Assembly (NCBI GenBank): GCA_963728205.1
Contig: CAVSIV010000001.1
Span: forward strand, 1,184,001-1,248,000
DNA length: 64,000 nucleotides
Origin: an uncultured Chloroflexia bacterium
GTDB lineage: Bacteria > Chloroflexota > Dehalococcoidia > UBA2979
Direction: 5' to 3'
Both the position numbers and the translations under genes were made by a program. Of this stretch, positions 1 through 17,592 are shown piece by piece. Under the pieces are notes generated by a model that was not told the origin of the DNA, ran no database searches, and was given only the letters and a program-made list of their open reading frames with translations. The stretch's first letter is position 1; the number at the start of each line of letters is the position of its first letter.

Positions 1-1
1 T

Positions 2-427
2 CCGCGCGCCGAGGCCGCGGGCCTCTACACGGCGACGGTCCGCGTCACGGTCGACGGCGCGTTGCCGCACGCAGACGTCGGCGTCGGCATCGTCGCCGAG
101 CCGACGCCGGAGGCGCACGCGACGGCCTACAAGGCGGCCGTCACCGATGCCCTCAAGCGGGCGTTCCGCCACTTTGGTCCCCAGTTCGGTGGGGACCTGG
201 CACGGGGCGCCGAAGGCACGCCGGCGGCAGACGACCCGCCCGACGAGCTGCGCCGCCGCGTGCTCGACATCGCGGCGCGCGCCGGCTCCGACGAGGCGCG
301 CACGCGCGAGTGGATCTCGCAGCACTACGGCTGCCCGCTCGAGGAACTCGACGGGCGGCCGCTCGCACACGCCGTGGCCGCGCTCTCCCGCGGCCTCGAG
401 CGCCGCAACGGCCACCACGCGGCCTGA
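2..427 (+). CDS. Rad52/Rad22 (Sak-like) single-strand annealing protein, 5'-partial
   Basis: Frame is open from the window edge; motif AYKAAVTDALKRAFRHFG matches the Rad52_Rad22 KxAxTDAxKRA..FG signature. Confidence 0.75.
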   Translation, partial: PRAEAAGLYTATVRVTVDGALPHADVGVGIVAEPTPEAHATAYKAAVTDALKRAFRHFGPQFGGDLARGAEGTPAADDPPDELRRRVLDIAARAGSDEARTREWISQHYGCPLEELDGRPLAHAVAALSRGLERRNGHHAA

Positions 428-646
428 ATGTTCGACACCGAGCACACGCGGAGGCGGGTCATCACCACGCGCTCCGCTCGCTACCGGGTGGCGTGGATCC
501 CGCTCGCCCGCTCGCCCCTGCCCGGCTTCCGCGCCTGCGCCGTCCAGGCGGTGCCCGTCGAGGAGCCGCCCACGCGCGCCGTCCGGCTCGTCCTCTTCGA
601 GCGGCTCACGCCGCCCGACGAGGGCGACCGGCCCGGCGCCGCATGA
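428..646 (+). CDS. hypothetical protein
   Basis: ATG directly follows the upstream stop; GC3-rich codon usage. Confidence 0.5.
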   Translation: MFDTEHTRRRVITTRSARYRVAWIPLARSPLPGFRACAVQAVPVEEPPTRAVRLVLFERLTPPDEGDRPGAA

Positions 647-680
647 CGACCCACCGCCCACATCGAAAAGGAGTACCGAC

Positions 681-1082
681 ATGCCAGAGTTCGTTCGGCG
701 CGCCCGGCGCCGCACTGAGATCAGCTACACGCGGGAGTTCCGCTACCGCGACAGCGAGTACGCGGGCTTCGGCTTCCCCTGCGACGCGGCGGGCAACGTC
801 GACCGCGACGCGCTGCCCGCGCCTGCTCGCTCGAACCTCGACCGCTGCCTCGCGGGCGAGCTGGACGTCGTCGACCTCGGCGTGCGCCGCGACGAGCACC
901 GCTGGACCGAGCCCGCCGTGCTCCGCTGCGACTGCGGGGCCGACGTCGTGCTCGGCCACTTCACGAACGCCTGCCCGGTCTGCCCGCGCGACTACGACTC
1001 CGCCGGCTCCCTCCTCGCGCCAGGCGACCAGTGGGGCGAGGAGACCGGCGAGGCCCTCTCCGAGATCCTGCGGACGCCGTGA
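681..1082 (+). CDS. hypothetical protein with Zn-ribbon-like Cys pairs
   Basis: AAAGGAG RBS before ATG 681; CDC...CPVC near the C-terminus. Confidence 0.7.
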   Translation: MPEFVRRARRRTEISYTREFRYRDSEYAGFGFPCDAAGNVDRDALPAPARSNLDRCLAGELDVVDLGVRRDEHRWTEPAVLRCDCGADVVLGHFTNACPVCPRDYDSAGSLLAPGDQWGEETGEALSEILRTP

Positions 1083-2033
1083 CGCCTGAGGCGAAGACGG
1101 TCACGCGCGGAAGCCGCGTGCCTCCCGGCCGGCGTCCGCGCGCGAATGCGCGCCGTGACGCCTACGCGGCGGTCACCGACCGCATCATCGCCGCGCTCGA
1201 CCGCGGCACCGTCCCGTGGCGCCAGCCCTGGCGCGCACGCGGGCACCGCAACGCGTTCTCCGGTCACGCCTACCGGGGCATCAACCTGCTGATCCTCGGG
1301 CTCACCGCGCTCGAGCGCGGCTTCGACGACCCGCGCTGGCTGACATACCGGCAGGCCGAGGGCCGCGGCGGGCATGTGCGCCGCGGCGAGCGCGGGACGC
1401 AGGTCGTGCTCTGGCGCTGGCTCGAACGCGACGACCCGGACGCGGCCGACGGCGTGCGGCGGTACCCGCTGCTCCGCCTCTTCACCGTCTTCAACGCTGC
1501 TGCCCAGTGCGACGGCTTCGCGCTGCCGCCGATGGACGGCGAGCCGTTCGACCCGATCGAGCGCGCCGAGGCGATCGTCGCCGGCTACGCGGACGGACCG
1601 CGCATCCTGCACGACGCCGACTGCGCCTACTACGCCCCCGTCACCGACGAGGTGCACCTGCCGCCGCGCGGCGCCTTCCGCGACGCCGACAGCGAGTTCG
1701 CCACGCTCGCCTCACGAGCTCGGGCATAGCACGGGGCATCGTTCGCGCCTGCACCGCGAGGGGTTCGAGCGCGACCTCGCACCCTTCGGCTCCCCGAGCT
1801 ATTCGCGCGAGGAGCTCGTCGCCGAGTTCGCCGCCGCCTTCCTCTGCCATGAGGCGGGCGTCGACGCGTCCCGCCTCGAGCAGTCCGCCGCCTACATCGC
1901 GAGCTGGCTACGCGCGCTCCGCGACGACCGGCGCCTCGCCGTCGTCGCGGCCGCGCAGGCACAGCGCGCCGCCGATCACATCCTCGGGCAGCCGTCCGGG
2001 GACCAGCCACCAGCCATCCAGGACGAGAGCTGA
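1079..2033 (+). CDS. ardC: ArdC-like antirestriction protein (DUF1738 ssDNA-binding plus zincin metallopeptidase domain), frameshift near 1710
   Basis: Motifs IIAALDRGTVPWRQPW and YRGINLLIL, then HELGHSTGH and YSREELVAE in the next frame. Confidence 0.85.
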
Positions 2034-2053
2034 CACATCGAGCGCCGGCACGA

Positions 2054-2076
2054 AGCCCCGCGAGCGATCGCGGGGC
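2054..2076 (+). terminator. GC-rich hairpin after ardC
   Basis: GCCCCGCGA-GCGA-TCGCGGGGC inverted repeat about 20 bp after the stop; no U-tract. Confidence 0.35.
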
Positions 2077-2112
2077 GGCCTCGTCATGCCCGATCCACGA
2101 AAGGACCCAGCA

Positions 2113-2445
2113 ATGACCGACCAGATCACGCAGACCGAAACGCGCGTCATCGAGCGCGACATCACCGGTGCCGAGTGCGGCGCCTGCCCGCCGCGGGGGA
2201 GCAAGCACGTCGAGGTCGACGACCTCACGGCGCAGGAGCGCCGCATCGCGAAGCGCCTGCTCCACGGCGACAGCCCGCAGCAGATCGCACTTGCGCTGGC
2301 GATCAGCACGCGCACCGTCTACTGGCACCAGGAGAACGTGTATGTGAAGACGGGCGCGCGCAGCCTCGGCGAGTTCTTCGCCTGGGCCTACCGGCACCGC
2401 GAGTGCTGCGGCTTCGCGGCGCTCTTCGAGCGCTCGCCGCGATGA
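2113..2445 (+). CDS. LuxR-type HTH protein
   Basis: LTAQERRIAKRLLHGDSPQQIALALAISTRTVYWH is a GerE/LuxR HTH pattern; AAGGA RBS. Confidence 0.75.
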   Translation: MTDQITQTETRVIERDITGAECGACPPRGSKHVEVDDLTAQERRIAKRLLHGDSPQQIALALAISTRTVYWHQENVYVKTGARSLGEFFAWAYRHRECCGFAALFERSPR

Positions 2446-2855
2446 CCGACGACCGCGGTCGGTGCGAGGTCTGCCCGACCCTCACTGATCCCTACGCGCT
2501 CCTGCAGGAGCTGCGGCACCACGCGCGGGAGCTCGTCGAGGCACCCACGCCGCAGTCGGTAAGCCGGCTGCGCGTCGCCCTCGACCACTTCGAGCCCGAC
2601 GCCGAGCTGCGGTCGTTCGTGCGCGCCGCGGCGCTCACAATCGTCGCCGGGCAGCAGTGCCACCCCGAGCTCGACGAGCTGCACGGCTACGTCTGCCCGT
2701 GTCGGCTCGGCGGGCCCGCGCACCAGCTCACGGCCGAGGAGATCTCGGATGCGCTGGCCGCGCTCGTCGCGTCGGGCCGCGCGCTCTACGACGGGCGCAA
2801 CCGCTTCCAGCTCGCCCCGCCGCCACACGGCGGGCCGACTGCCGCGGCCGCGTGA
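2442..2855 (+). CDS. hypothetical protein (CxxC and CxC motifs)
   Basis: ATGA overlap with the previous stop; coherent codon usage. Confidence 0.55.
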   Translation: MTDDRGRCEVCPTLTDPYALLQELRHHARELVEAPTPQSVSRLRVALDHFEPDAELRSFVRAAALTIVAGQQCHPELDELHGYVCPCRLGGPAHQLTAEEISDALAALVASGRALYDGRNRFQLAPPPHGGPTAAAA

Positions 2856-2871
2856 TCGCGGACGACGGACG

Positions 2872-3590
2872 ATGGCACGCTTCCGTCACGTGATCCTGCC
2901 GGGCGGGTACGGCCTGCCGGGGCACCTCGCGTACACGCGCTGCGGGCACGTCGTCGCCTACGGGCGACAACCGAACGTCCCGCGCGGCGACCCGCGCTTC
3001 TGCCCGCGCTGCCGCGAGCTCGACGACGAGCCACAGCCGAGGGCGGCGGTCGATGCGGCTAGCCACCTGACCGAGGGTGACGCGGAGCGCCTCCAGCACC
3101 TTATCCGCATCAGCTGCGCCTGCTCGGCGAGCTGCGATCGCACTACGGCTGGCAGCCGTCGCCCGACGAGCGAAGACGGCTGCGCGGCCCGCGCGACATC
3201 TACGCGCTGCTGGCTCCGGAAATGGAACCCCTCGAGCAGGAGCAGTTGCGCGTGCTCCTCCTCAACACGCGTCACGACGTCGTCGACGTCGTCATGCTCT
3301 ACCAGGGCACCGTCAACGGGGCACCCGGTCGCATCGCCGAGGTGTTTCGCGACGCGATTCGGCGGAATGTCCCCGCGATCGCGCTGGTGCACCAGCACCC
3401 GTCCGGCGATGCCGAGCCCAGCGCCGACGACCGTGCCTTCACGCAGGAGGTGGCGCGGGCCGCCGAGCTGCTCGGGATCAGCCTGCTCGACCACGTCGTG
3501 ATTGGAGGCGGCTCCTTCGTGAGCCTCCGCGAGCGCGGCTACCTCGGCAGCGCAGCGCTGACCGCGCGTCCTTCGACCCCGACCAGATGA
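2872..3590 (+). CDS. RadC-like JAB-domain protein, frameshift near 3110
   Basis: EQEQLRVLLLNTRH, ALVHQHPSGDAEPSADD (HxHPSG) and LLDHVVIG; the N-terminal part carries RCGH and CPRC. Confidence 0.85.
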
Positions 3591-3603
3591 AAGGAGAGTA
3601 TCG

Positions 3604-3870
3604 ATGACTGCTCGAAACGGTGACCGCAGCCAACGTCGAGGTGCACCGTGGACCGACGCGGAGGACGACCGGCTCCTGCGCATCGCCGACCTGCCCCCGC
3701 GACAGGTCGCGGAGCACATGCAGCGCAGCTGGCATGCGTGTCGCAGGCGGCTCGCCTACCTGCGCGCCAACGGCGCCCCACTAGCGGGGAACGCTCCCGC
3801 TCGCGGCGGGCCCGCGTCGATCGCGCACGCGGCAGGCGGCGGCGCGTCGACCCGCCAAGACCGTCCGTAG
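3604..3870 (+). CDS. small Myb/SANT-like HTH protein
   Basis: AAGGAGAG RBS; WTDAEDDRLL...VAEHMQRSWHACRRR resembles a single Myb repeat. Confidence 0.6.
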   Translation: MTARNGDRSQRRGAPWTDAEDDRLLRIADLPPRQVAEHMQRSWHACRRRLAYLRANGAPLAGNAPARGGPASIAHAAGGGASTRQDRP

Positions 3871-4152
3871 ACGCACCTGACGGGACTCGAAGCGGAACGG
3901 ACGTCCGCTCGAGTCCCGGCAGCGCGATCTGTCGCAAGAAGGAAGATCGTGCAAGTCGCAGGGCCGGCATTCGGCGCGGCGGTCGATGCGCACGCGGCCG
4001 AATCGCGAGCTCTGGTTCGTCGCTGTCCGGCAACCGCGACTCCGTGGGCGACAGTGGGGCAGCACCGCGCCGGCGCCCGCAAGTGTGACCGCGAGATACC
4101 GGTGTGCTAGCAGATTGTACCTAGCGTACGCTGAGTACGCAGGGAGGCCCTG

Positions 4153-4455
4153 ATGAGTGAACACGTGTCGGCCCGAGATGCCCGGAGCCGTTTCGCGGAA
4201 CTCACGGACCGCGTGAAGTACACGGGCGATCCGGTGATCATCGACAAGCAGGGACGCCCGTTCGTCGCCCTGATCCGCGCCGAGGACCTCGCAGTCCTCG
4301 AGCGCGCGCTCGTCGCGGAGCGGCAGGCGGCGTTCAGCCGCCTCGCCGCCGCGGCCAGCGAGCACGCGCCGGCGGCGCCCTCCGAGGAGGAGATCACCGA
4401 GGCCGTCCGCGTGACGCGCGAGGCGCTGCACCGCGAGCGCTATGGCGCTGCCTAG
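4153..4455 (+). CDS. Phd/YefM family antitoxin
   Basis: VSARDARSRFAELTDRVKYTGDPVIIDKQGRPFVALI; GGAGG RBS. Confidence 0.85.
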   Translation: MSEHVSARDARSRFAELTDRVKYTGDPVIIDKQGRPFVALIRAEDLAVLERALVAERQAAFSRLAAAASEHAPAAPSEEEITEAVRVTREALHRERYGAA

Positions 4456-4933
4456 GCTGCGGGTCGCGCTCGACGCCAACGTCCTGATCGCCGGTACCGT
4501 CTGGCCCCGCTGGCCGCACGAAGTGCTGCGGGCGGCGCTCGGACGCCATTTCGACCTCGTGCTCCCGGAGCAGGTGGTCGAGGAGGCACGCCGGCACCTC
4601 ACCGCGCAGCAACAGGCGGCACTCTCCTATCTGCTCGACCACACGCCGCACGAGCGGTTGCCCATACCACCGCGGGCCGAGGTGCTCGCGGCGCGGGATC
4701 TCGTGCGGCACGACCCCGACGTGCCGATCGCGCTCGCCCTGCTCACCGCGGGCATCGACATCTTCGTGACGAACGACCGCGACTTCACCGACGCGGACGC
4801 CGTCGCCGGACGCTTCAGCCGCCAGGTGCGCGTGATGCTCCCGGCGGTGTTCCTCCGCGACGTGCTCGGCTGGAGCTCCGAGGCGCTCGAGGCGATCCGG
4901 TCACGCACGTGGGACGACCTTCGCGACCGGTAG
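4442..4933 (+). CDS. PIN-domain (VapC-like) toxin
   Basis: VALDANVLI, DPDVPI and FVTNDRDF supply the acidic PIN residues; overlaps the antitoxin. Confidence 0.85.
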   Translation: MALPRLRVALDANVLIAGTVWPRWPHEVLRAALGRHFDLVLPEQVVEEARRHLTAQQQAALSYLLDHTPHERLPIPPRAEVLAARDLVRHDPDVPIALALLTAGIDIFVTNDRDFTDADAVAGRFSRQVRVMLPAVFLRDVLGWSSEALEAIRSRTWDDLRDR

Positions 4934-4962
4934 CGCCGTCTGACCGCTGCCGCGATCACGCC

Positions 4963-4988
4963 AGAGCCGCCCAGTCAGGGCGGCTCTG
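4963..4988 (+). terminator. hairpin after the TA operon
   Basis: CAGAGCCGCCC-AGTCA-GGGCGGCTCTG perfect 11-bp stem. Confidence 0.45.
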
Positions 4989-5020
4989 CGCATTCCCGTG
5001 CACATCCGAAGGAGAGACCG

Positions 5021-5252
5021 ATGGACCTCTACTGCCCGATCTGCGGTGAACCGTGGGCGCTCGACGCGCTGCACGATGTTCCCGACGCCGGCTTCGACGT
5101 GGCGCGCCGCCGCTTTCGCACCGAGGGCTGCGCGCTTCTCGGCTCGCCCCACAACCGCCCGATCGACGGCGCGACCGCCGCGAAGTCGGCGCTGCTCCCA
5201 CGAACTGCTCGGCGACGACCTCGACGACATCGCCAGCCTCATGGCCGAATGA
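5021..5252 (+). CDS. small hypothetical protein (MDLYCPICGEPW...), frameshift near 5200
   Basis: AAGGAGAG RBS; CxxC N-terminus; continues as ELLGDDLDDIASLMAE in another frame. Confidence 0.55.
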
Positions 5253-5355
5253 GCATGGCGACCTCGCACATCCGCTGCGCGGGATTCGCGGCGGCCGTCG
5301 ACGCATATGCCGCGGACGAGCGCGAGCTGTGGTTCGTCTCGCTGCTCGGCAACGT
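5249..5355 (+). pseudogene. 5' fragment of a mobile-element gene cut by the lower-GC insert
   Basis: ATGA-coupled start MSMATSHIRCAG...ELWFVSLLGN, then an abrupt shift to more AT-rich sequence. Confidence 0.45.
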
Positions 5356-5507
5356 TGGCTTCGAATCAAGAATCCCTTGCCTTTCTCAAGACTCGGGGCA
5401 CGAGTCACAGGCACGAGTCACGTACTTGACGGCATACGTTAGACTGCCGGCAGCCGGTAGGCCGAATCGATGCTCGAGTCAAGTGACCGACTTCCGCGAG
5501 TCAACGG

Positions 5508-6188
5508 ATGACTACCGTGCCTGTCCCCGTAATTCTCTGTGACTCCGATCCATATTCAAGATCGCAACTTCACGACATCTTCTCAGATGCGTCACACTTC
5601 GAGTTGGTCTGTGAGGTCGCGGATCCGATGGCGATACCTCCTACCGACGTGCCCTCTGTGGTCGTTATTGATCCCGCGGTCCGCAACCGGTTCGTTCCGC
5701 AAGTGCTCGAATGCGCGCACGAGCGTGCGCCAGCCGCCCAGTTGGTCGCTTATACAAGCGACTTCTCTCCGGAGTTCCTCGAGACCGCCCTCGAGGTCCG
5801 TCTCCGCGCGTACTTCCTCAAGGGGCCGGTACACGAGACCCTGCTCCCGTCCTGCGTGGAGCTCATCGGTTCTTCCGATCTCATCATCGTCGACGGATCC
5901 TTTCGCGACTGGTTCGAATCCGAACCCTGGAGACTCCGCTTTGAAGCAGCGCCTCCGTCGTCGAGAGCGCTGTCGGTACAAGAAGAAGTCATCCTGCGAT
6001 TGCTCGCAGACGGGCTCTTCGACAGTGATATCGCGCGGCAACTGTCCGTCAAGGAGACCACGGTCCGGACGCACATCAGTCGCATCGAGGAGAAGCTCGA
6101 GGCGCGCCACAGGGCGCATGCCATCGCGATTGCGATTCGGCGTGGTCTGATCGATCCGATGGCATTGGCTGCTTCTGCCGTCTTGTAG
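5508..6188 (+). CDS. NarL/LuxR family response regulator (REC plus HTH)
   Basis: VILCDSD, VVVID, YTS and YFLK receiver motifs; LSVQEEVILRLLADG...TVRTHISRIEEKL HTH. Confidence 0.85.
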   Translation: MTTVPVPVILCDSDPYSRSQLHDIFSDASHFELVCEVADPMAIPPTDVPSVVVIDPAVRNRFVPQVLECAHERAPAAQLVAYTSDFSPEFLETALEVRLRAYFLKGPVHETLLPSCVELIGSSDLIIVDGSFRDWFESEPWRLRFEAAPPSSRALSVQEEVILRLLADGLFDSDIARQLSVKETTVRTHISRIEEKLEARHRAHAIAIAIRRGLIDPMALAASAVL

Positions 6189-6549
6189 CGGGATGTCGAC
6201 GCTGCTTGTGGCCAGACGGGCCTTGCCTTGCGATCGCCTTCCGTGCAGTCTTTGGCCCGAACCGCCCACACTGCCCTCAATCGAGGGAAGACGGGAAGAG
6301 GGAAGGGACGAGGATGACGCCAGAGAATGACCAGGCGTCTCGCCGCTACGTCTAACCGGAGACTCTTATAGCTAAATCCCGCGAGTGGATGCAGAGTTCG
6401 CGGTTTGCTTCCGCGATGGCGCGGAGGGCGATTCATGCCTGTAGCGTCGTCATCCTCATGCGTCGTGCGGGTGTTGAGCATCCATGATGCGGCTTCCGGA
6501 CGCGACTAACTGCGCTACTGGCCATGATAGCTTGGGAGACGAGAACAAG

Positions 6550-6966
6550 ATGGACACTCAGACGCGCACCGACGTCGATGGACAGTCGCTCTCTCGGCGA
6601 CGCCTCCTTGGAAAGTCCTTGGCAGCCGGGATAGCAGGGGTTGCGGCACTCGCGTTGCCTACCCAGTTCCGCGTCATCGACCGTGCGGAGGCGTCAAGCT
6701 GTACCTCTTGTGGTCCCGGGACGTTGTACTACGGCGATGCAACGTTCTGCGGATGCAGCAGCGGAGACACATGCGACCATGACCCGCTGGGCTGCTGCTC
6801 TGGCAGCCAGCAAGAAACTGGCGGTATCGTCTGCGCATGGACCTACTGTGAGTCGTGCTGGCCGGGTACCTGTTGCCATCCCGTCTACTCATTCGTGGCG
6901 TGCTGCTGCTGGGGTGCTTGTTACCCATGCGACGGCAGACAGATTTCCGCGACCCAGTATTGCTGA
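6550..6966 (+). CDS. Tat-exported cysteine-rich peptide precursor (48-aa leader, 90-aa core with 18 Cys)
   Basis: SRRRLLG twin-arginine motif, hydrophobic stretch, AEA cleavage site; Cys counted directly from the translation. Confidence 0.8.
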   Translation: MDTQTRTDVDGQSLSRRRLLGKSLAAGIAGVAALALPTQFRVIDRAEASSCTSCGPGTLYYGDATFCGCSSGDTCDHDPLGCCSGSQQETGGIVCAWTYCESCWPGTCCHPVYSFVACCCWGACYPCDGRQISATQYC

Positions 6967-7008
6967 CGATCCCTCAAACAACACGTACACGCGAACAGGA
7001 TCTCAGAG

Positions 7009-7548
7009 ATGCCTCAATACGCAGCCATCACTGTAAGCAGCATCGAAGACGCGCGGGCGCTTGCGTCCTTCCCGGTCGCCATGCCTAGCTTCGTCCCGGC
7101 TGGATACGAACTGCGCTCCATCAGGCAACTGTGGCCACCCCATATCAGCGACGCCGCGCGTCAGAAAAAAGTGCATGCCGACTTCGTCGATTCGATCCAC
7201 GTCAACGCTGCGGGAGACCAGATTCTGATCACACAAGGATTCTTCGCGCGTCTGATTGGCACCGTTATGGAAGGACTCGCGCCGGCCGACAGCTCTGGCA
7301 CGCTACGCATCGGGCAGCGCGATGCGGTGTGGCTCACGGCACAGCCAATGACTCCTCCGGTACACGATGGTGCGGGCCGACGCGTCATTCCCGACTGGAA
7401 GAAGAATGCCATGACTTGCGTGGGCTGGCTCGCGGGTACGGTGCCGCCGCCCGAAGGCGGCAGAACTCCGAGCTCCAGGTACTACGCCATCGAGGCTACA
7501 GCGCTGTCGCTCGATGAAGTCATCAAGGTCGCAGAGTCCGTGTCTTAG
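7009..7548 (+). CDS. DUF4367-like protein
   Basis: SIEDARALASFPVAMPSFVPAGY at the N-terminus and LSLDEVIKVAES at the C-terminus are typical of DUF4367. Confidence 0.55.
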   Translation: MPQYAAITVSSIEDARALASFPVAMPSFVPAGYELRSIRQLWPPHISDAARQKKVHADFVDSIHVNAAGDQILITQGFFARLIGTVMEGLAPADSSGTLRIGQRDAVWLTAQPMTPPVHDGAGRRVIPDWKKNAMTCVGWLAGTVPPPEGGRTPSSRYYAIEATALSLDEVIKVAESVS

Positions 7549-7565
7549 GTGGTGGTGCACTGGCC

Positions 7566-8144
7566 ATGATGCTTGATCAAGGACTAGGCGATGCGTTAGT
7601 GACCATCGCGCGTCTGTCACTTGCTTCCATCTTCTTGATGGCGGGTTGGACGAAAGCCGCAGAAGGCGAAAACTTTGTCGCGACAGTGGAAAAGTACGGG
7701 ATTCTTCCTCGTCGAGTGGTCCGTCCATTCTCCATATCGCTCCCTTGGGTCGAGTTGATCGCGAGCGCGCTGCTGTTTTCCGGATTTGAGATCCAAGTGG
7801 CGTGCGCTGTCACGGTCGCCTTGCTCGCCGCCTTCGTCTTCGCTTCGCTTACCGCGATGTCGAGAGGAGTCGCTCTGGATTGCAGCTGCTTCGGGCTGTT
7901 ATATCGCGAGCGGATCGGGTCTGCCACCGTGGCCCGCGACGCTGTCTTGCTGTGCTTGTCTGTCGCCGTCTTTGCTCTCGATGGAGGAAGGTTCTCGCTC
8001 GCAGCGTTGCTCTCGGGTACCGAAAGCGCGGCAGTAGGTGTGGCAGTCGCCGTTGCAACAGCGGCCTCATTCGCTTTGAGCGCCACGCTGGCTTCCAAAG
8101 CGACGGGCTCTGACCTTGCGGGTCAACCCGGGCTCGCGCGCTGA
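7566..8144 (+). CDS. mauE: MauE/DoxX family membrane protein
   Basis: RLSLASIFLMAGWTK, LPWVEL and DCSCFG...ARDAVLL (CxCFG hallmark of MauE); several TM helices. Confidence 0.85.
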   Translation: MMLDQGLGDALVTIARLSLASIFLMAGWTKAAEGENFVATVEKYGILPRRVVRPFSISLPWVELIASALLFSGFEIQVACAVTVALLAAFVFASLTAMSRGVALDCSCFGLLYRERIGSATVARDAVLLCLSVAVFALDGGRFSLAALLSGTESAAVGVAVAVATAASFALSATLASKATGSDLAGQPGLAR

Positions 8145-8599
8145 TGTCGGGTTCAGCTCACCGACGAGCGACCCGTTGCCACCACCTCGGGACGCGTGCG
8201 ATGCCGTCGACTGCGGCGACGTGGGTCACGCGGAGCAAGACGCGGTTCTGGAGCGAGGCGGGCGGCACCAAGCAGGGTACCTCCAGCGAGCTGCGGACGC
8301 GCGTGATGAGGCGTCGGAGACGGCCGTCCCGCAAAACTCCATTGCGGCCGAGAAAGGGGGGTCCGGGGTTGGTGGGGGGGAGGGCTCGTCTCCGTGCAGT
8401 TCCGCGACGGTTCCGAGGCTGCGAAACCCGAGCGAGATCTAGACCTACCGAGATTGGTGGACATGAATCAGGTCTCCTCGCCAGGTGATCCCATCGTTGG
8501 CACCCGAGGCGGTTGATCTTCATGGCGCGGGGCCGTCCACTGCGTAGGGCACGGGCGACGAGTGGCGTGCTCGGCTGCACCAGGGGCGGACGGACGCAG

Positions 8600-9814
8600 A
8601 TGGACGACCGGCGTGCGAATCACGGGCCTTGCCCGCTGGCCGTGACCGGCAGGATTGCTGGCGTGCTCGCGGTCGCGCTGATCCTCGCCGCATGCAGCGG
8701 CTCGCCGCTCGGCGGCGGCTCAGGGAGCGCGACGCCGTACGCGCTGCCGCCGGATGCGACGCCCTATCACGGACCGACCCGCCCTGTTACCGGACTCGAC
8801 GCGACGCCCGGCCCGACGCACGTTGACCAAACCCGCGCGCTCGGGCCCCCGCCGCCATCGCAACTCCCGGCATGGGACGGCACGTCGGTCATCCTCTACA
8901 ACCTCAAGACCGGCGAGCGGATCGACCTGGGGCCCGGGCGGATCACCGTGGGGTCGTTCGCCGGCGGAGCGGGCCGGTTCGCGTGGCTCGTGGGGCCGTC
9001 GAGCACCGTTCCGATGGGTCAGTCCCCCGCGTGGGGCACGGCGCGCGTAATCGACCTCGCGACGCGGCAGCAGCGCGACTACGGCCGTGCGACGAACGTC
9101 GGGTTCGGTGAGCCGGGCCAACTCTTTGTCGCGAGCGCGCACGGGTTCGTGCGCATCGACCTCGCGACCGGCGCGACCGCGACGCCGACATTCGCGACGT
9201 TCCCGCCCTCCATGCACTACCCGGGCTACATCATCGAGCCCTTGCACCCGGCCGCGACGCCGCCGACCGGCGGCAACGCCGGTTACCTGATCGTGCCTGA
9301 CGATGGTTCACCCGCCCTGACCGCGCAGGCAGCGATGCTCTTCGCGGTCCCGGGAGGGCGCGCAGTGCTGGCACTCGTTCGCGAGAGCGGCAGCGTGTAC
9401 GGCCTCTTCCGAGTCGATGTGCCGAGCGCGCGCGCCACCCCCGTCGCGTGGGCCGACTTCGACGGCTACGACTACCCGCTCGGCCTTGCGTCCGACGAGA
9501 TCGCGATCGGCGACCGGCTCTGCCACGACGACGGCCGTATCTTCGTCTACCACTTCGACAGCGAACGACTGGACGCACTGCGCACGAACCTGCCGCCCGT
9601 CACGATCAACGGAAACGGGTTCGGCGTCGACGGCGGCGCCGACGTCGCGCGCGCCCGGATAAATCCGACGTCGCTCGACTATTCGACGGTGCTGCCCACG
9701 CCCGGCGTATGGTCGCCGGACGGGACGTGGGCTGCCGTCGGTCCGACGGTCTACACGCGGACGACGCCGAGTCCGTGCGGGACTCCGAAAGAGACGCCGA
9801 CGCCCGAGCGGTAG
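8600..9814 (+). CDS. lipoprotein, probable beta-propeller
   Basis: Lipobox LILAAC; Pro/Thr-rich linker; repeated xIDLxTG blades and WSPDG. Confidence 0.7.
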   Translation: MDDRRANHGPCPLAVTGRIAGVLAVALILAACSGSPLGGGSGSATPYALPPDATPYHGPTRPVTGLDATPGPTHVDQTRALGPPPPSQLPAWDGTSVILYNLKTGERIDLGPGRITVGSFAGGAGRFAWLVGPSSTVPMGQSPAWGTARVIDLATRQQRDYGRATNVGFGEPGQLFVASAHGFVRIDLATGATATPTFATFPPSMHYPGYIIEPLHPAATPPTGGNAGYLIVPDDGSPALTAQAAMLFAVPGGRAVLALVRESGSVYGLFRVDVPSARATPVAWADFDGYDYPLGLASDEIAIGDRLCHDDGRIFVYHFDSERLDALRTNLPPVTINGNGFGVDGGADVARARINPTSLDYSTVLPTPGVWSPDGTWAAVGPTVYTRTTPSPCGTPKETPTPER

Positions 9815-10139
9815 GGGGGCAACGCGCGTCTGACCCCCGTGGCGGCGAAGATGCTGGGGTGCCGGCGTATCCAGGACTCTCGATCAACGGTGTGCGGGCA
9901 TGGCGCACGGTCGAGGCGCTGGAGTGGCGACGGCGACATGCGCATCCCCTTGAGCGCCGTCAGACCCGTCGAAGCAGCGCGCGTAGCGAGTAGTTACTTG
10001 GTCGTTCGTGCAGCCCAGACAGCGTCCCGAACTTCGGAGTCTCGACCGAACGCAGGTCCGTCCAGGTCGTCCACTCCGCGCCGCCGGTGTCGCCCATGAA
10101 TTGAAACCTGGCGAATCCTCCACTGCGGCGGGATTCCTG

Positions 10140-10200
10140 GACCGTCATGACGCAGACATGACCCTCGCATGACCGTCATGACCCTGCGGTGACCCTCGTC
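10140..10200. repeat. array of (CA)TGAC motifs
   Basis: TGAC at 10148, 10159, 10170, 10179 and 10190; GACCGTCATGAC occurs twice. Confidence 0.6.
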
Positions 10201-10211
10201 TGAGCTTGCAA

Positions 10212-10580
10212 TTAAACCTTCGGGCTGGTTCGGGCGAGCTCCTGCAAGCTCAGTTCGAGCGCTTTGGCGGCGATCTCGCGCATCTGCTGGATCAAGCGAC
10301 GCATCTCACGATCGTTGGCGATCCACTCTTGATAGAGCTGTGCCTGCTGCGCGGTGAGGCGGCGCGAGGCGGTCTTGCCGTGGAGCTTGGTCGACCACTG
10401 GTAGTACGGCCCGTGGAGGCGTGAGGGGTCGGTGCGGCAGTGGCAGCCGGGGGTGCTGCAGTGGGTGTAGCGACGAACGACGCTGCCCGACGAGATGAAC
10501 CCGATGGTCGCGAGCTGCGCGGCGAGCTGCGCGTACCGCCGCTCGTACGCGGCCAGCCGCGCGGCGCGTCGCTCCGCCAT
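10212..10580 (-). CDS. DUF6788-like IS-associated protein
   Basis: GSVVRRYTHCSTPGCHCR...HGPYYQWS...GKT motif; the stop codon lies inside the left TIR. Confidence 0.75.
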   Translation of the reverse strand: MAERRAARLAAYERRYAQLAAQLATIGFISSGSVVRRYTHCSTPGCHCRTDPSRLHGPYYQWSTKLHGKTASRRLTAQQAQLYQEWIANDREMRRLIQQMREIAAKALELSLQELARTSPKV

Positions 10581-10686
10581 CGCGCTTCCTCTCCCGCGCG
10601 CGCATGGTACCGCCAGGCGCAATCAGTATGTAGACTGATCGTCACAGCGCGCGGGGAGACGCAGCGGCAGGGGTCGGGAGACCCCC

Positions 10687-11932
10687 ATGGACGAAGCACC
10701 GGCTGGCAGCCCGGATGCGCAGACGCTGGTCCGGTTCCGCCGTGGGCTGCACGGGTGCCTGGCGCGCTGGGACGACGCGCTGTTCGAGCTGGGCGACGCA
10801 CTGCTGGGCGCGCCGGGTTCGGTGAGCTCGGTACCGGCGCTCAGCCTCGAGCCCGAGTTCCGCCGCTCACACGGCAGCCTCTACAAGGCCCTCGCCCGCG
10901 GACAGATCGACGGGGACGCGCCGCGCCGGCTGTGCTCGTCGCGCACCGGCCCGCGCGCTGGCCGCTGGTGTTCGCCGTCGACGCCTCGACCTGGGCGCGC
11001 TGCGACGCGGAGTGCAGCCCGGAACGCGGCTTCTACTACTCCGCGTCGCGCCACTCGACGCGACCACCATGACCGCGCAGCAGGTGCAGCGCCTGGTCGC
11101 GCTGCTGCCCGCCGACGGCCCCGCTCCGCTGTTCGTCTTCGACGCCGGCTGCGATCCGATCGCGCTCAGTGTCGGGCTCGCCGACTGCCACGCCGCGGTG
11201 CTGGTCCGCATCCGCTCGGACCGCGTGTTCTACCCCGATCCCGCCCCCTCCGCCGGGGCCGTCGGTCGTCCGCGCCGTCACGGACCGCGCTGCGCGCTCG
11301 CCGCTCCGGACGCCCTGCCCACGGCGGATGCCCGTCTCACCGTCGACCACCCGCGCTACGGCACGGTCCGGGTGACGGCCTGGCACGGCCTGCACCCCAA
11401 GCTCCACCGCCGCGGCCGCTGGGCCGGCGAGGGCCTCCCGCCGATCGTGCGCGGCACGGTGCTGCGGGTCGAGGTCGACCATCTGCCGAAGCCGACCGCC
11501 CGCGCCAAGAAGACCCTCTGGCTGTGGTGGTCCGGTGCGGGCGCACCCGATCTCGACACCTGCTGGCGCGCCTACCTGCGCCGCTTCGACATCGAGCACA
11601 CGTTCCGCTTCATCAAGTCCACGCCGGGCTGGACCACCCCCGCGCTCTGCCATCCGCAACAGGCCGACCGCTGGAGCTGGCTGATCGCCGCCGTCTATAC
11701 GCAGTTGCGGCTCGCTCGCGGCCTCATCGCCGACCTCCGGCTGCCATGGGAGCGCCCCCGCGACCCCACCAAGCTCACCCCCGCCAGGGTGCGCCGGGGT
11801 TTCCGTCGACTGGCCGCTCTCCTCGGCACGCCGGCCAGTGCACCGAAACCCAGCCGGGCCGGCCCCGGACGCCCCAAAGGCACCCGCAGACCGCCTCGAA
11901 CCCGCTATCCGGCAGTCAAGAAAGCCGCCTGA
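10687..11932 (+). pseudogene. DDE transposase (NF041680/IS701-like), frameshifted and internally deleted
   Basis: DALFELGDALL, FRRSHGSLYKAL, FAVDASTW, VFDAG and YLRRFDIEHTFRF; frame breaks near 10930 and 11056. Confidence 0.8.
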
Positions 11933-12447
11933 GCGCCGCCACGAGGTTCAATCGCAAGCTCAGAACCGGATCGTCAGTCGGAATGGGGCACCGACCGTTT
12001 CGCACGAGCGCGTCGTCATGCCGATGTTCACGTGCCTGGAACGCCCCGCCCACGAGCCGGGCCGGATAGGGACGAGACGGGACCAGACGGGACGGGGCGG
12101 CACGAGCAGGTACAGCGTCGGCGACTCTATGCGGCGTGGGAGTCACTTGGCCACGCGATACCTCGCGCATCCCAATCGTGGTCGACTCGGTGCGGAAGCA
12201 CGAGCCGTCGGCTTGGAGTTACCAGAGATGGGGCCTCCCCCGTCTCCACCAGCCCACTACAAACGGGGCGCCAACGGGCGCTCCGTTTCGTTTGTCCACC
12301 ACGGACATGCACAACTCTTCGCTCAGCACCCGACCGGGCGAGCGTCGATGCCGCTCCTTGGGTCGACGACTCTCCCCCAGGCCTGCGCGCACCGAACCAT
12401 GAGCACGGCGGCGCACAAACCGTCGTCGCGGTGCCCGGGCGAGCCCT

Positions 12448-12801
12448 TCAGACGGGGCATCCCATGTCCGCGCCGGCGTCCGGATCGACCGCCAGACCGA
12501 TGGCGGGGCCGCGGCCGAGCCGCAGCGTCGCTGGAACGCTGCGGTCGGCGAGCGTGAGCACGTAACGGCCGGGCTGTGGCAGCAGCGAGTGCTCGGGCGC
12601 GAAGTCGATCGTCGGGGGCGCACCGGGCACGGTCGGACAGAGGAGGCGGCCGACGGCGATCAGGCTGCCACGCCCGTCGCCGACCAGCACCCGCGTCCCA
12701 TCCAGCGACGACCCGGCCGCCTGCGCGGCTGGAGCCGCGGTGCCGGCTCCGATCGGAGCGTCGACCGCTTCCCGGATCTGAGCGTCGCGTGTGGCGGACA
12801 T
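12448..12801 (-). CDS. hypothetical protein
   Basis: GAGGAGG RBS before ATG; lies downstream of the cupin gene. Confidence 0.5.
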   Translation of the reverse strand: MSATRDAQIREAVDAPIGAGTAAPAAQAAGSSLDGTRVLVGDGRGSLIAVGRLLCPTVPGAPPTIDFAPEHSLLPQPGRYVLTLADRSVPATLRLGRGPAIGLAVDPDAGADMGCPV

Positions 12802-12916
12802 CACTTCCTCCTCAGCGGTGGAAGCGCCGGCGTGGTTCGCCCGGGTCGCTCCCACCGGTCATGTGTTCTCGTGTTCGCGTGCGCCCTTGCCGACGCAGCG
12901 ACGCGCGCCGGATCGG

Positions 12917-13318
12917 TCAGCCGGACGCCGCCCCGGCATGAGGGTCGCCGGCGACCGTGACCAGGAACGCGCAGTCTTCCTGCGCGGTCAGCGCGTGCGC
13001 CACGCCGGTGTCGAGCACGACCATGCCGCCCCGGCCGAGGCTGACGGATCCCGCATCGCTCGTGAGCGCCATGCGTCCCGCGAGCACCTGGACCGACGCG
13101 GGGGCGTCCACATGGTGCTCCTGGACCACGGTCCCCTCGCGCAGACCGACCACCGTCACGCGCAGCGGGCCCTCCTTCACGAGCGTCTTCGCGATGCGCC
13201 CGCCCAGTGCCCCGCGCGCCTGCTCGAGGAGGTCGGCGACCTCCGCGTCCAGCTCGAACTCCAGCTGTCGGGCTGCGAGCGTGTGGGTTCGCGCGTATGT
13301 CGACTCGTGTGCTGTCAT
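12917..13318 (-). CDS. cupin domain protein
   Basis: AKTLVKEGPLRVT, EHHVDAPASVQVLAG and GVAHAL; GGAGGAG RBS. Confidence 0.8.
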   Translation of the reverse strand: MTAHESTYARTHTLAARQLEFELDAEVADLLEQARGALGGRIAKTLVKEGPLRVTVVGLREGTVVQEHHVDAPASVQVLAGRMALTSDAGSVSLGRGGMVVLDTGVAHALTAQEDCAFLVTVAGDPHAGAASG

Positions 13319-13404
13319 GATGTCTCCTCCTCGTCGGCCGCTCCCGACGGCGTTCGCTCGTCGCCGGTCGATCCGACCGTATGGCGCGGATGCCGGTTCA
13401 TCGC

Positions 13405-13461
13405 CCGGCGAACGTCCCGGCTCGCGGCTCGTCGGTCTCGAGAGTTCGGGACCTTCGGTCT
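13405..13461. promoter_or_regulatory. two DosR/DevR-like boxes in a divergent promoter
   Basis: CCGGCGAACGTCCC (13405) and GGGACCTTCGGTCT (13448) resemble GGGAC-N4-GTCCC. Confidence 0.5.
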
Positions 13462-13547
13462 CGGGGAAGCGTGGGGACGCCCCGCGTCCTGGCGTCGGAG
13501 GGGTCGCTAGACTGGGGATTCCGAATCTCCGCGACGAAGGGGCATCC

Positions 13548-13997
13548 ATGACGCGCCCTACGAGCGTGTTGCTCGTCGACGACCAGCCGGTGGCGCGCAT
13601 CGGCCTGCGGGCCGTGCTCGAGGGTGGCGGGCGCTTCTCCGTCGTCGGCGAAGCGGACTCCGTGAGCCGGGCCGCCATGCGCGCCGTCGAGGTCCAGCCC
13701 GAACTCGTCATCGTGGCGCTCCGGCTCCCGGACGGCAGCGGCGTTGACGCCATCCGCGCCGTCCAGTCCGCGGTGCCGGGTGCGCGGTGCGTCCTGTTCT
13801 CACCGGAGCAGGACGACGAGGCTGTGATGGAGGCGTTCGCCGTCGGCGCCTCGGGATTCCTGCTCAAGACCCTCGAACCCGACCTCATCGTCGAGTGGCT
13901 CGAGGTCGTCGCCGCGGGCGGCTTCGCGCTCGGCCCGGTGATGACCGAGCGCCTGCTCGTGCGCTACCGCGACGCGAAGACGTGGACCGGGTCGTGA
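13548..13997 (+). CDS. stand-alone NarL/DosR-type receiver domain lacking the phospho-Asp
   Basis: VLLVDDQP, LVIVALRLPDGSG (Ala at the usual Asp position) and GFLLK; no HTH before the stop. Confidence 0.8.
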   Translation: MTRPTSVLLVDDQPVARIGLRAVLEGGGRFSVVGEADSVSRAAMRAVEVQPELVIVALRLPDGSGVDAIRAVQSAVPGARCVLFSPEQDDEAVMEAFAVGASGFLLKTLEPDLIVEWLEVVAAGGFALGPVMTERLLVRYRDAKTWTGS

Positions 13998-14014
13998 CGG
14001 ACGGGGGGCACGCG

Positions 14015-14557
14015 ATGCCACCCGACGACCGGCGAGCTGCGGGCGCGCCCGGCGACGACGCGGACATGAGCGCCGCTCTTGCGGCCGAGGACCCGACCGC
14101 GCTGCTGCGTGCGGAACATCGACGCCTGCGCGCCGACCTGCGGTCTCTCCGCGACCTCGTCCAGTCGGACGCGGCGGGCGCGGATGTTCGCGCGCGGGAG
14201 GCGCTCGCCGCGCTGCGCGAGCGGGTGTCGCGGCATGCCCGGATCGAGGAGGAGGTCTACCTGCCGGGCATCGAGGCGCTGCTCGGCGACGACGCGGCGG
14301 CGACCGCGGAGGAGGCGAAGGGCGAGCACGACGGGATCACCATCCGTGCGAGCCAGCTCGCGGAGGCGCTGGCAGGTAGCGGGGAGCGCGAGCTCGCGCT
14401 CCGCCATTTCGAGCGGTCGCTCACGATCCACTTCGACAACGAGGAAGAGCAGTTCCTCGACGTCGCGGACCGGCGGCTGACTCCCGGGCGCCAGCGCGAC
14501 CTGTTCCGCCGCATGCGCGCGTGGCAGGCTCGCGAGGAGGGCGCGCACTCCCCCTGA
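14015..14557 (+). CDS. hemerythrin/HHE domain protein
   Basis: LRAEHRRL, HARIEEEVYLP, EHDGI and HFDNEEEQF. Confidence 0.8.
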   Translation: MPPDDRRAAGAPGDDADMSAALAAEDPTALLRAEHRRLRADLRSLRDLVQSDAAGADVRAREALAALRERVSRHARIEEEVYLPGIEALLGDDAAATAEEAKGEHDGITIRASQLAEALAGSGERELALRHFERSLTIHFDNEEEQFLDVADRRLTPGRQRDLFRRMRAWQAREEGAHSP

Positions 14558-14595
14558 CCGGCGCGACGCGCGCCGGCCGGCCTCCCGTCGGTACG

Positions 14596-15990
14596 TCAGC
14601 CGACGGGCGCCTCGACGGCGCGCGCCCCGCCCGCCTCCCCGCCGCAGAGCGGCCACGCGACGACGGCGAAGCACGCGAGCGCCGCGAGCCCGAGGACGCC
14701 CGAGAGCGCGAGCGTTGCGGTCGCGCCGGCGGCGATCACGCCCCCGGCGAGGCGGAGCACGACCGATGCGTTGAGCAGCGCGAACGCGGCGTCCATCGCG
14801 CGCGGCATCGGGAGCGGCCGCCCTTCGAACAGCGGCAGCACGCGCGCGGCGAAGCCAAAGATCGTCATCGTCACGAAGCCCATCGCGAACGTGTGCAGTC
14901 CGGGCAACGCCCGCAGCGGCCGGGCCGCGCCGGCGAGGTCTTCGACGGCGGCGACGACCAGCAGCACCGCCGCGACGACCAGCCACCCGTACGCCGCGCG
15001 GAGGAACCAGGCGAAACGCGCGTACGTGGCCGGGGCAGCGTCCGCGCCCGGCGGCGCTTCGGGGGGCGCCCCACCACGCGTCGCCGGCGGTCGCGCCGGA
15101 TCGAACACGCGCAGCGCGACGGCGAACGCGACGGCGCCGGCGGCCCACAGCAGCGTCCCCCCGGCCGCGACGCCCGCCGGGGCGGCCGCCGCCGCGGCTA
15201 CGGTTGTCCACGCGACGCCCGCGTTCACCGCCACGAACGCGACGCGCTCCACCCGCGCCCGCCGCGCCTGCAGTCGCAGGAAGCCCGCCGACGCTCGCAG
15301 CGAGACGCCGAAGAGGAAGTCGCCGAGGAAACCGAATGTCCCCGCGGACACGACCGCCGCGTCGAGGGACGGCGACGCCACCGCGCTGCCGTCGCGCGCC
15401 ATCCGCGCGGTGAGTGCGAGATGGAGCGCCGCCGCCACGACCGCCCACGCGAGCCCCGCCCAGGCCCAGCGCTCGAACGGCACGGCCGAGGGCGTGCCTC
15501 GCCGCAGGGGGCCGGCGAGCGCCGCGGCCAGCACCGCGACGCCTGCGAGCAGTGCCGGCCCGGACGCCGCGATTGCCCCGGCGCCGAGCCACGCGGCGTC
15601 TCCGCCGGCGACCGCGAACTGTCCGCCGGCGCGCAGCGCGATCGCCATGAGGATCAGCGCCAGGCCGGCCCGCTGCGGCCACGGGAACGCGATGCGTGCG
15701 TTGCCGCGAAACCGCGGCACGACGTGGCTCGCGATGCCGAAGACGAAGAGCCCCGCCCACCCGAACACCTGCGCGACGCCGTGAGGCTGCACCGCCCCCG
15801 CCCACGGGATCGCGTCGCTGCCGGCAGCCTGCTCGCCGAGCATGGCGGCGCCGAGCGTGAAGCCCAGCGTCAGCCCCACGACCAGCGCCGCGCGGACGAA
15901 CGGGCGGTAGAGGCGCTGCCGCGCCCAGGGCGTCGGCGCGTAGCGCGCGGGTCGGGCCCGTGCCGTCCCCTGTCGTCCCGCCTCCGGCAT
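14596..15990 (-). CDS. NnrS-like membrane protein
   Basis: Many TM helices; HGVAQVFGWAGLFVFG...VPRF and LHTFAMGFVTMTIFG...LPLF repeats. Confidence 0.7.
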   Translation of the reverse strand: MPEAGRQGTARARPARYAPTPWARQRLYRPFVRAALVVGLTLGFTLGAAMLGEQAAGSDAIPWAGAVQPHGVAQVFGWAGLFVFGIASHVVPRFRGNARIAFPWPQRAGLALILMAIALRAGGQFAVAGGDAAWLGAGAIAASGPALLAGVAVLAAALAGPLRRGTPSAVPFERWAWAGLAWAVVAAALHLALTARMARDGSAVASPSLDAAVVSAGTFGFLGDFLFGVSLRASAGFLRLQARRARVERVAFVAVNAGVAWTTVAAAAAAPAGVAAGGTLLWAAGAVAFAVALRVFDPARPPATRGGAPPEAPPGADAAPATYARFAWFLRAAYGWLVVAAVLLVVAAVEDLAGAARPLRALPGLHTFAMGFVTMTIFGFAARVLPLFEGRPLPMPRAMDAAFALLNASVVLRLAGGVIAAGATATLALSGVLGLAALACFAVVAWPLCGGEAGGARAVEAPVG

Positions 15991-17021: not shown

Positions 17022-17442
17022 GGTGCCGCCGCCCGGGACCGCGGCCGGCGCGGCGGCGCCGGCGCGATCCCGCGCAGGTAGACCGGGGCGCGCAGCTGCG
17101 CATCGAGCGGCCCGCTCTTCGCGGGCGCGGCTCCGAGCGCGCGGCTGACGTCGAGGATCGCGGGGCGCCGCGCCTCGGTGCGGCTGGAGCGCGCCGGGTC
17201 CCCGAACCATCGCTCGCCGGCTTCGAGCACCGCCCGGATCGGGTTGGACGCTGCGTTCTTGCCCGGGGGGCGCATGTGGGGCACTGGCTTCCTCCGCACC
17301 CTCGGCTGCTCCTCGCAACCGGAGCGTACGACCGCCGACGGCGGGCGCCCACTCCTCGGCGCACCCGGCCCGCGTGGTCTCATGGGACCTCTCGACGCTG
17401 GTGCCTGCGGAGGGAGGGCAGCGCCGTCGCGCTAACTTCCGC

Positions 17443-17574
17443 GCTGCCGCTGCCGCTGCCGCTGCCGCTGCCGCTGCCGCTGCCGCTGCCGCTGCCGCTG
17501 CCGCTGCCGCTGCCGCTGCCGCTGCCGCTGCCGCTGCCGCTGCCGCTGCCGCTGCCGCTGCCGCTGCCGCTGCC
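17443..17574. repeat. perfect hexanucleotide tandem repeat (GCTGCC)22
   Basis: Counted directly: 132 bp with no mismatches, in a divergent intergenic region. Confidence 0.95.
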
Positions 17575-17592
17575 CTTCGTCGGGGGGCGATC

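Follow-up and report, generated by a model that had tools for sequence, protein, structure and literature searches.

Among the described systems closest to the locus reported here is the mauE-mauD-mauA module of methylamine dehydrogenase (MADH), in which a small Cys-rich subunit with a leader of the twin-arginine translocation (Tat) type is encoded beside the membrane protein MauE. In papers that cite van der Palen's work of 1997, MauE and MauD are said to be needed for this subunit. Our locus lies in a 64,000-nucleotide (nt) stretch of DNA from an uncultured Chloroflexia bacterium (GenBank assembly GCA_963728205.1, contig CAVSIV010000001.1, positions 1,184,001 to 1,248,000; hereafter the window). 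It is a four-gene cassette encoding a response regulator, the precursor of a Cys-rich small protein with a twin-arginine leader, a protein designated open reading frame 3 (ORF3) and a protein of the MauE family. What is new here is the signal-less ORF3 in the place of MauD. We see an even chance that the whole is best explained as a small protein that is exported by Tat and oxidised by MauE into a disulfide-knotted form, ORF3 being its escort or co-exported partner.

MauE itself reaches beyond MADH. According to a 2026 preprint, MauE is a generalist DsbB-like enzyme, a CXC-F-G motif is its described active site, two MauE proteins substitute for DsbB in E. coli in a manner requiring the CXC motif, and MauA is present in just ~10% of the MauE-bearing species (bioRxiv 10.64898/2026.03.05.709764). 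Already in 2020, decRiPPter flagged three Streptomyces families of candidate RiPPs (peptides of ribosomal origin that are modified after translation) with mauE, one of them also with mauD (PMC7794033). These families resemble our locus in that MauE and a secreted, small Cys-rich product occur together in the absence of a mau cluster. Going by the published listing, they are set apart by precursors of 57–66 amino acids (aa) with at least eight Cys and by short leaders lacking a twin arginine. The features of our locus are as follows.

5300..8150, no strand: island of low guanine-plus-cytosine (GC) content carrying the four-gene cassette; boundaries approximate, from GC and GC at third codon positions (GC3)
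5508..6188, + strand: response regulator of the NarL/LuxR type, 226 aa, with GerE helix-turn-helix (HTH); an orphan, as the island has no kinase gene
6550..6966, + strand: 138-aa precursor of the small Cys-rich protein; its ATG has GGGAGA ~10 nt on the 5' side
6550..6693, + strand: twin-arginine leader, 48 aa, ending in RAEA (TIGR01409); cleavage site predicted from the alignment
6694..6963, + strand: mature core, 90 aa with 18 Cys by composition count
6904..6963, + strand: C-terminal family signature CCW-GA-C-Y-PCD-G-R-QISATQY-C, from a six-sequence alignment
7009..7548, + strand: ORF3, 179 aa, soluble, with one Cys; predicted to partner with the Cys-rich core (hydropathy, homologues, complex model)
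7566..8144, + strand: MauE-family membrane protein, 192 aa (PF07291, transmembrane (TM)-like segments)
7881..7889, + strand: CSC (CXC) motif in MauE with F-G after it, read from the sequence

The precursor had been proposed by a first-pass annotation of the window, and its coordinates and composition were confirmed: within 138 aa it contains 18 Cys, 3 Trp and a C-terminal Cys. Its leader (SRRRLLGKS...RAEA) reached 17.6 bits with TIGR01409 (TAT_signal_seq; cut-off 16.7) and displays the elements of a Tat signal, i.e. the S/T-R-R-x-F/L-L motif, a single hydrophobic segment (residues 19–37) and the A-x-A-type site AEA behind it. From this leader we infer export of the precursor through Tat; TatC is encoded in the host genome. 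The core following AEA consists to 20% of Cys, which form CC and CCC clusters, and is acidic (7 D+E versus 1 K+R) with few His and Met. Translation could alternatively start at an upstream ATG (6484), yielding 160 aa, but the shorter 138-aa precursor is favoured because the GGGAGA element sits ~10 nt 5' of position 6550. Apart from the leader model, no Pfam or NCBIfam family was found for the Cys-rich protein, even at an expect value (E) of ≤10, and a sequence-profile search of the PDB with the precursor returned nothing significant (best E 0.19).

A word-based search for homologues of the single precursor gave no match. Exhaustive phmmer comparison with 1.84 billion representatives (E≤0.001) yielded four matches, of which three (P0004, P0005 and P0006; 130–144 aa) are genuine full-length relatives. 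The remaining match, P0003, belongs to a repeat protein of 523 aa that aligned to leader residues 6–47 only and was dropped as a homologue. P0007 and P0008 came in through a profile search, giving a family of the window protein plus five homologues, each of which is a singleton cluster among ~15 billion proteins. The RR pair of the leader is invariant in all six members. All six also share the C-terminal signature CC(C)W-x2-3-C-x-PCD-x-R-x5-6-Y/x-C, in which C119, C120, W121, C124, P126, C127, D128, R130 and C138 (window numbering) do not vary. In total 19 columns are invariant across the six precursors, while the middle of the core is variable. The cores contain 18, 12, 16, 20, 12 and 14 Cys, respectively. 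Even numbers in 6/6 are predicted by paired disulfides, whereas metal sites do not require them.

In a scan of the whole 4.1 Mb host genome (73% GC, 89% complete), the window precursor was the only small Cys-rich ORF with an RR leader returned; this and the existence of real homologues place it beyond chance. We take it to be a real protein and a member of a tiny family. With either start, the ORF is missing from the collection of ~15 billion proteins, in which ORF3 of the same window is present, and gene callers therefore probably missed it. It was not found in plasmids. At the level of raw reads, one soil-metagenome DNA run contains 0.14 of the sampled words, and no RNA sequencing run containing them was listed.

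The assignment of the last gene of the cassette to MauE with a CxCFG motif was likewise borne out. The protein matches PF07291 over residues 10–136 (E 2.3e-23, 83.3 bits, cut-off 27) and carries D-C-S-C-F-G at residues 105–110 (CSCFG at 106–110) between TM-like segments. As candidates for the conserved Lys in TM1 and Glu in TM2 that lie close to the quinone site, the stretches GWTKAAEG and PWVELIAS were seen by reading only. The host genome already contains a VKOR plus DsbA-like pair and a MauE of its own, encoded in a 515-aa frame with two weak MauD-like (thioredoxin-fold) stretches and hence a MauE-thioredoxin fusion (G000:C1:581153-582613; loci L001, L094 and L095). Because of this host equipment, the MauE of the island looks dedicated to its neighbour. 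Weak MauD matches in the genome occur only outside the cassette. Many MauE matches of the phylum reside in open frames of ~480–560 aa and may be similar fusions. The cassette enzyme compares with the DsbB-DsbA and VKOR-DsbA systems, in which, too, thiols are oxidised by a membrane protein whose Cys pair faces outward, and MauE can replace DsbB in E. coli according to the 2026 preprint. Those systems, however, perform housekeeping on many substrates, whereas the window MauE travels with one candidate substrate.

The cassette differs in base composition from its surroundings. GC content is 60.4% in 5400–8150 as compared to 72.8% in 1–5300 and 72.7% in 8200–16000, with 100-nt windows falling at ~5300 and climbing at ~8100. 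Correspondingly, GC3 is 0.65–0.70 in the four cassette genes versus 0.86–0.91 in the neighbouring RadC, Phd, PIN and lipoprotein genes. Searches for ORF3 were negative in 40 relatives, in plasmids and, with a profile, in 400 phylum genomes. By composition and distribution, the four genes represent a horizontally acquired, rare cassette. Flanking repeats marking an insertion site were not found around the island, tRNA genes were not found in positions 1–20000 of the window, and no Rfam family and no promoter-like (sigma-70-like) or terminator-like site was found in 5000–8700.

A relative of the cassette was recovered with a degenerate DNA motif scan for the family signature, the pattern of which fits the two-residue spacing only and would miss members such as P0006 and P0008. 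The scan returned 59 loci, 23 in genome contigs (none genuine) and 36 in metagenome contigs, of which one, L054, is genuine. On this 1448-nt metagenome contig, the end of P0007 is followed by an ORF3 homologue (L054:716-1258, minus strand; 48% identical to window ORF3) and by MauE, i.e. the order is that of the window. The L054 MauE is 52% (N-terminal part) and 41% (C-terminal part) identical to the window MauE, whereas the best matches in 400 phylum genomes reach 33–38%. A tree that takes in one row from the unpublished genome G264 unites the two proteins in a clade (support 97/94) and separates them from the MauE that the host itself has. The GC content of L054 (60.3%) matches that of the island. 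A search for further related loci returned nothing for ORF3 in genome contigs and nothing for P0005 in metagenome contigs. Precursor, ORF3 and MauE thus appear to travel together, and the linkage of homologues to mauE, whose absence the first-pass annotation had named as a refuting finding, is present on this one contig.

ORF3 lacks a signal peptide and TM-like segments (maximum 19-residue hydropathy 1.28) and matched no Pfam or NCBIfam family at E≤10. Besides the L054 protein, one homologue was found (P0002, 49% identity, on a 1392-nt contig); across the three sequences 60 columns are invariant, including one Cys. The gene had been labelled DUF4367-like, which did not withstand inspection: PF14285 matched neither ORF3 nor P0002 nor the L054 homologue at E≤10 and gave no match in the host genome. 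In the ESM Atlas, 9/30 feature matches of ORF3 fall in sets with 20–25% DUF4367 members; a LolA-like fold was not assigned. There is also no thioredoxin-type match, and with its single Cys and no TM anchor ORF3 has none of the hallmarks of a MauD/TlpA-like partner.

A sequence-profile search of the PDB with ORF3 returned nothing significant (best E 0.38). Its structure model is of good quality (pLDDT 85.2, predicted TM-score (pTM) 0.80) and shows a long antiparallel sheet packed with helices. The fold search was topped by the C-terminal domains of MucB (6jau_A, Z 8.8, 96 residues aligned, root mean square deviation (rmsd) 3.9) and RseB (2v42_A, Z 8.4, 94 aligned, rmsd 2.6), followed by Tsi3 (4luq_C, Z 7.8, 98 aligned, rmsd 3.1). 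These matches are middling; best Z values of 7–8 are typical of models without a clear match. Further down were BT_1490, LpqN, TiME, Apa, the PknH ectodomain and Mog1/PsbP (Z 5–7), as well as the immunity proteins TplEi (Z 5.9) and Smlt3025 (Z 3.9). Foldseek against the PDB ranked these proteins high as well, but none of its matches reached E≤0.001. By their entry titles, many of these proteins are periplasmic, secreted or extracellular, and several bind partners.

We modelled ORF3 together with the precursor. Three runs scored 0.02, 0.91 and 0.89 (median 0.89), the best of three controls scoring 0.63; in the benchmark of this score, the mark was reached by 58/80 solved complexes and by 2/110 mismatched pairs. 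The runs share at least 15% of the contacts, with partner pLDDT values of 33–59 that leave the fold of the partner uncertain. The predicted interface comprises precursor core residues 51–137 and does not involve the leader. Contacts of lowest error include precursor residues 129–131, in the region of the invariant D128-x-R130, with ORF3 residues 55–57, which lie inside the invariant stretch K54-V55-x-A57-D58-F59-V60 (KV.ADFV). The model supports that ORF3 binds the Cys-rich core, which would make the middle gene more than a bystander.

Next, we consider the relation to MauA. In comparison to the mau module, our cassette runs in the order precursor, ORF3, MauE and has no MauD-like gene. In line with the first-pass annotation, domain searches with the four cassette proteins listed nothing of the MauD-like, radical SAM or DUF692 kind. 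The genome, 89% complete, gave no match to PF02975 (MauA), PF03150 (MauG) or PF06433 (MauB), the PF06433 search being a weak one, as its control was positive in 0/14 control genomes. PF02975 matched 0/6 precursor family members at E≤10, and the PDB profile search with the precursor retrieved no MADH chain at this threshold. Of the two Trp residues that form tryptophan tryptophylquinone (TTQ) in MauA, the family offers one at most, W121 being its sole invariant Trp. By these comparisons, the core is not recognisably MauA, which upholds the earlier statement to this effect, and the cassette is not a methylamine dehydrogenase.

Two observations point the other way. When aligned by hhalign to 12 actinobacterial PF02975 proteins, the family gave a probability of 74% over 59 columns, which cover the leader and the ~20 first core residues only. 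In the ESM Atlas, 16/30 feature matches of the precursor fall in a set for which 13% of the members of the listed cluster have PF02975, a hint that stays a lead because the hhalign match is so confined. A divergent MauA-like quinoprotein subunit, in which a cofactor derived from Trp, of the TTQ or cysteine tryptophylquinone (CTQ) type, arises in the invariant CCW...PCD.R region, would fit with both observations, with the RR leader, Cys-rich core and adjoining mauE and with the invariant Trp, Asp and Arg beside Cys. In view of the missing PF02975, MADH, MauB and MauG matches, the narrow hhalign alignment and the single invariant Trp, we regard this as very unlikely.

In the phylum, PF02975 exceeded the cut-off in 5/400 genomes, all of one genus (G208, G275, G339, G347 and G355). 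Each has one to five, mostly three to five, PF02975-positive genes with an RR leader and 15–20 Cys, mostly in tandem arrays (G208:C2:479977-491852, L107-L111 and L116-L125). G208 carries five of them within ~12 kb of a 744-aa MauE fusion. Judged from these sequences, MauA-like domains of this genus may have multiplied outside an evident MADH context.

Mining of MauE neighbourhoods for Cys-rich ORFs with an RR leader, recommended in the first-pass annotation as a check, proved productive. MauE matches are present in 58/400 other genomes of the phylum. We sampled the 29 best loci with ~1500 nt on each side and detected a Cys-rich gene with an RR leader at 11 of them. In ten cases it belongs to a triad on one strand, in which MauE is followed by a mid gene for 191–236 aa and a Cys-rich gene with an RR leader for 109–162 aa (L067, L070, L071, L072, L076, L079, L081, L086, L089 and L092). 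The automated scan had flagged 12 loci; the match in L088 and one of two in L072 correspond to MauE's own frame and were dropped, and L084 was recognised by eye only. The triads have the mauE-mauD-mauA order. Among seven mid genes scanned, five exceeded the AhpC-TSA cut-off, one gave weak thioredoxin-fold matches only and one gave none. MauD (TIGR02661) was the best NCBIfam match in 3/4 mid genes, at 58–79 bits and thus under the cut-off of 188.6. None of the seven scanned Cys-rich triad products has a Pfam family. Cys-rich ORFs with an RR leader from L076, L079, L070, L072 and L089 are the five best matches of the precursor family profile outside the family (E 0.006–0.12), whereas the ORF3 profile found nothing in the MauE loci of the phylum. 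Like our cassette, the triads occur in genomes that lack a mau cluster and join MauE to a secreted, small Cys-rich product; they differ in that their mid gene, where scanned, encodes a membrane-anchored thioredoxin fold, while the window has ORF3 and a reversed order. A variation is seen in L087, where two tandem genes for 100-aa products with RR leaders and 12 Cys each (L087:2402-3124, minus strand) lie upstream of a 527-aa MauE fusion; both gave weak Conotoxin_I2 matches under the cut-off (E 0.0006 and 0.007).

Literature searches for Cys-rich proteins that have a Tat leader and occur with MauE led to no paper beyond PMC7794033 and bioRxiv 10.64898/2026.03.05.709764. As judged from the loci compared here, the theme of MauE with a Cys-rich substrate is common in the phylum, little studied and was suspected earlier, and the window version of it is rare. 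The locus had originally been put forward as a new system that reuses MauE outside amine oxidation. The reuse part stands, carried by a Tat-leader Cys-rich protein genetically tied to its own MauE, the lack of PF02975, PF06433 and PF03150, the synteny of L054 and the even Cys counts. To speak of a new system is too strong in light of the Streptomyces families of 2020, the generalist nature of MauE and the frequent triads of the phylum.

The mechanism that we favour, at an even chance, would start with synthesis of the precursor in the cytoplasm, where ORF3 would clasp the reduced core and either keep it in a Tat-competent state or hitchhike as a subunit. The ORF3-core pair, or the core alone following hand-over, would then exit via Tat. 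Outside, the cassette MauE, acting like DsbB as a thiol oxidase that is linked to quinone and has its CXC facing outward, would install up to nine disulfides in the 90-aa core and be re-oxidised by quinone. ORF3 would thereby occupy the position that a MauD-like thioredoxin has in related cassettes, and the orphan NarL-type regulator would control expression. As a working guess, the mature product is a stable, acidic, aromatic-rich extracellular mini-protein in a heterodimer with ORF3. There is precedent for such a partnership: in [NiFe] hydrogenase, the small subunit and the large one form a Tat hitchhiker complex. In complexes of this kind one subunit has the RR leader and a signal-less partner binds to it before export, as would be the case here. 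In our cassette, by comparison, co-export is predicted, no cofactor is evident, and the subunit with the leader is a disulfide-rich mini-protein.

Several points weigh against this mechanism. DsbB-like enzymes usually act through a thioredoxin-fold partner, and the cassette is devoid of one, ORF3 having a single Cys. The normal cargo of Tat is proteins that are folded or bear a cofactor, and this would also fit with a metal-loaded core. The stand-alone structure model of the precursor is too poor for a fold search (pLDDT 46.4), one run of the complex model scored only 0.02 and one control reached 0.63, and the fold of the partner in the complex is uncertain. Synteny of precursor, ORF3 and MauE is documented in one further contig only, in which the MauE gene (L054:98-687, minus strand) has a frame change near residue 103, just 5' of the CXC motif, reflecting either a broken copy or mis-assembly. 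Finally, the nearest folds of ORF3 include immunity proteins such as Tsi3.

The latter point leads to an alternative, in which the core is a secreted bacteriocin-like toxin matured by MauE, and ORF3 is an immunity protein or neutraliser that binds the toxin before export. Binding of ORF3 to the core in the complex model, the resemblance of ORF3 to Tsi3, TplEi and Smlt3025, and a mobile, rare cassette with a variable core all agree with such a toxin-immunity pair. However, the Z values are middling, the core with its excess of acidic residues is unlike most membrane-active peptides, the cassette lacks genes for export, lysis or a receptor, and a cytoplasmic immunity protein is unexpected for an extracellular toxin that depends on disulfides. 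We therefore consider this explanation unlikely.

Alternatively, the Cys clusters could hold a Cu, Zn or Fe-S-type centre that is loaded in the cytoplasm with ORF3 as loading chaperone. This would explain the use of Tat, the substrates of which often are cofactor proteins, and it draws on the CC and CCC clusters and on a weak match of the window MauE to the HvfX family for maturation of Cu-binding RiPPs (E 0.05). It is quite unlikely given that Cys numbers stay even in all six family members while ranging from 12 to 20, as is expected of paired disulfides, that the cassette includes a dedicated thiol oxidase and that the core is poor in His and Met. Decaying or silent passenger DNA, whose genes are intact by chance and have no functional product in the host, would suit a foreign island in which no sigma-70-like promoter or terminator was found and a precursor ORF absent from the 15-billion collection with either start, but it is hardly credible with all four frames open, a plausible ribosome-binding site 5' of the precursor, 19 columns invariant among six precursors and 60 among three ORF3 proteins at 48–49% identity.

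If the favoured reading of an exported, MauE-oxidised core with ORF3 as escort is true, the cassette would provide compact, portable parts, i.e. leader, escort and oxidase, with which Gram-positive hosts could make small proteins rich in disulfide bonds. With it one could ask whether a MauE-type oxidase works when no thioredoxin-fold intermediary is there, and it would exemplify how Tat deals with a protein that needs post-export disulfides to reach its final fold. The frequent occurrence of RR-leader Cys-rich proteins beside MauE and a MauD-like gene in the phylum points to a larger, barely described class. A wider proposal, which we rate as doubtful, is that MauA is merely the best-known member of a wide, unstudied Actinomycetota class of Tat-exported, MauE-oxidised, disulfide-knotted mini-proteins. 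The window cassette would then be a new branch of this class, in which the MauD relay is replaced by a co-exported signal-less clasp and MauE oxidises the substrate directly, with a protein as scaffold. Further chemistry, e.g. a Cys-Trp cross-link, could take place at the invariant CCW...PCD.R patch of the interface.

Upstream of the precursor lies the response regulator, the position of which had been noted correctly. It matches the GerE HTH (Pfam; E 1.8e-13, 50.3 bits) and aligns over the full length with NarL (1a04, E 1.7e-8). In this alignment, the phospho-acceptor Asp is aligned (VVVID versus LILLD) and the Lys is kept, while the acidic pair DD is changed to DS. The receiver domain is regarded as divergent because Pfam Response_reg gave no match at E≤0.1; with HTH and phospho-acceptor Asp, the protein nonetheless has the sequence features of the NarL/FixJ type.

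On the other side of the cassette, the lipoprotein-like gene 8513–9814, which has a LAAC lipobox by reading and no matching Pfam family, had been suggested as a beta-propeller partner. It was rejected as a member or partner of the island: its GC3 of 0.86 is host-like, and two paralogues with 46% and 42% identity are encoded elsewhere in the same genome, on contig C6. Further downstream, long ORFs without family assignment are located at 10687–12069 and 11012–11932. The surroundings of the island look mobile, with RadC at 3222–3590, a pair of Phd antitoxin and PIN toxin at 4153–4933, and DUF6788 at 10212–10622 on the minus strand.

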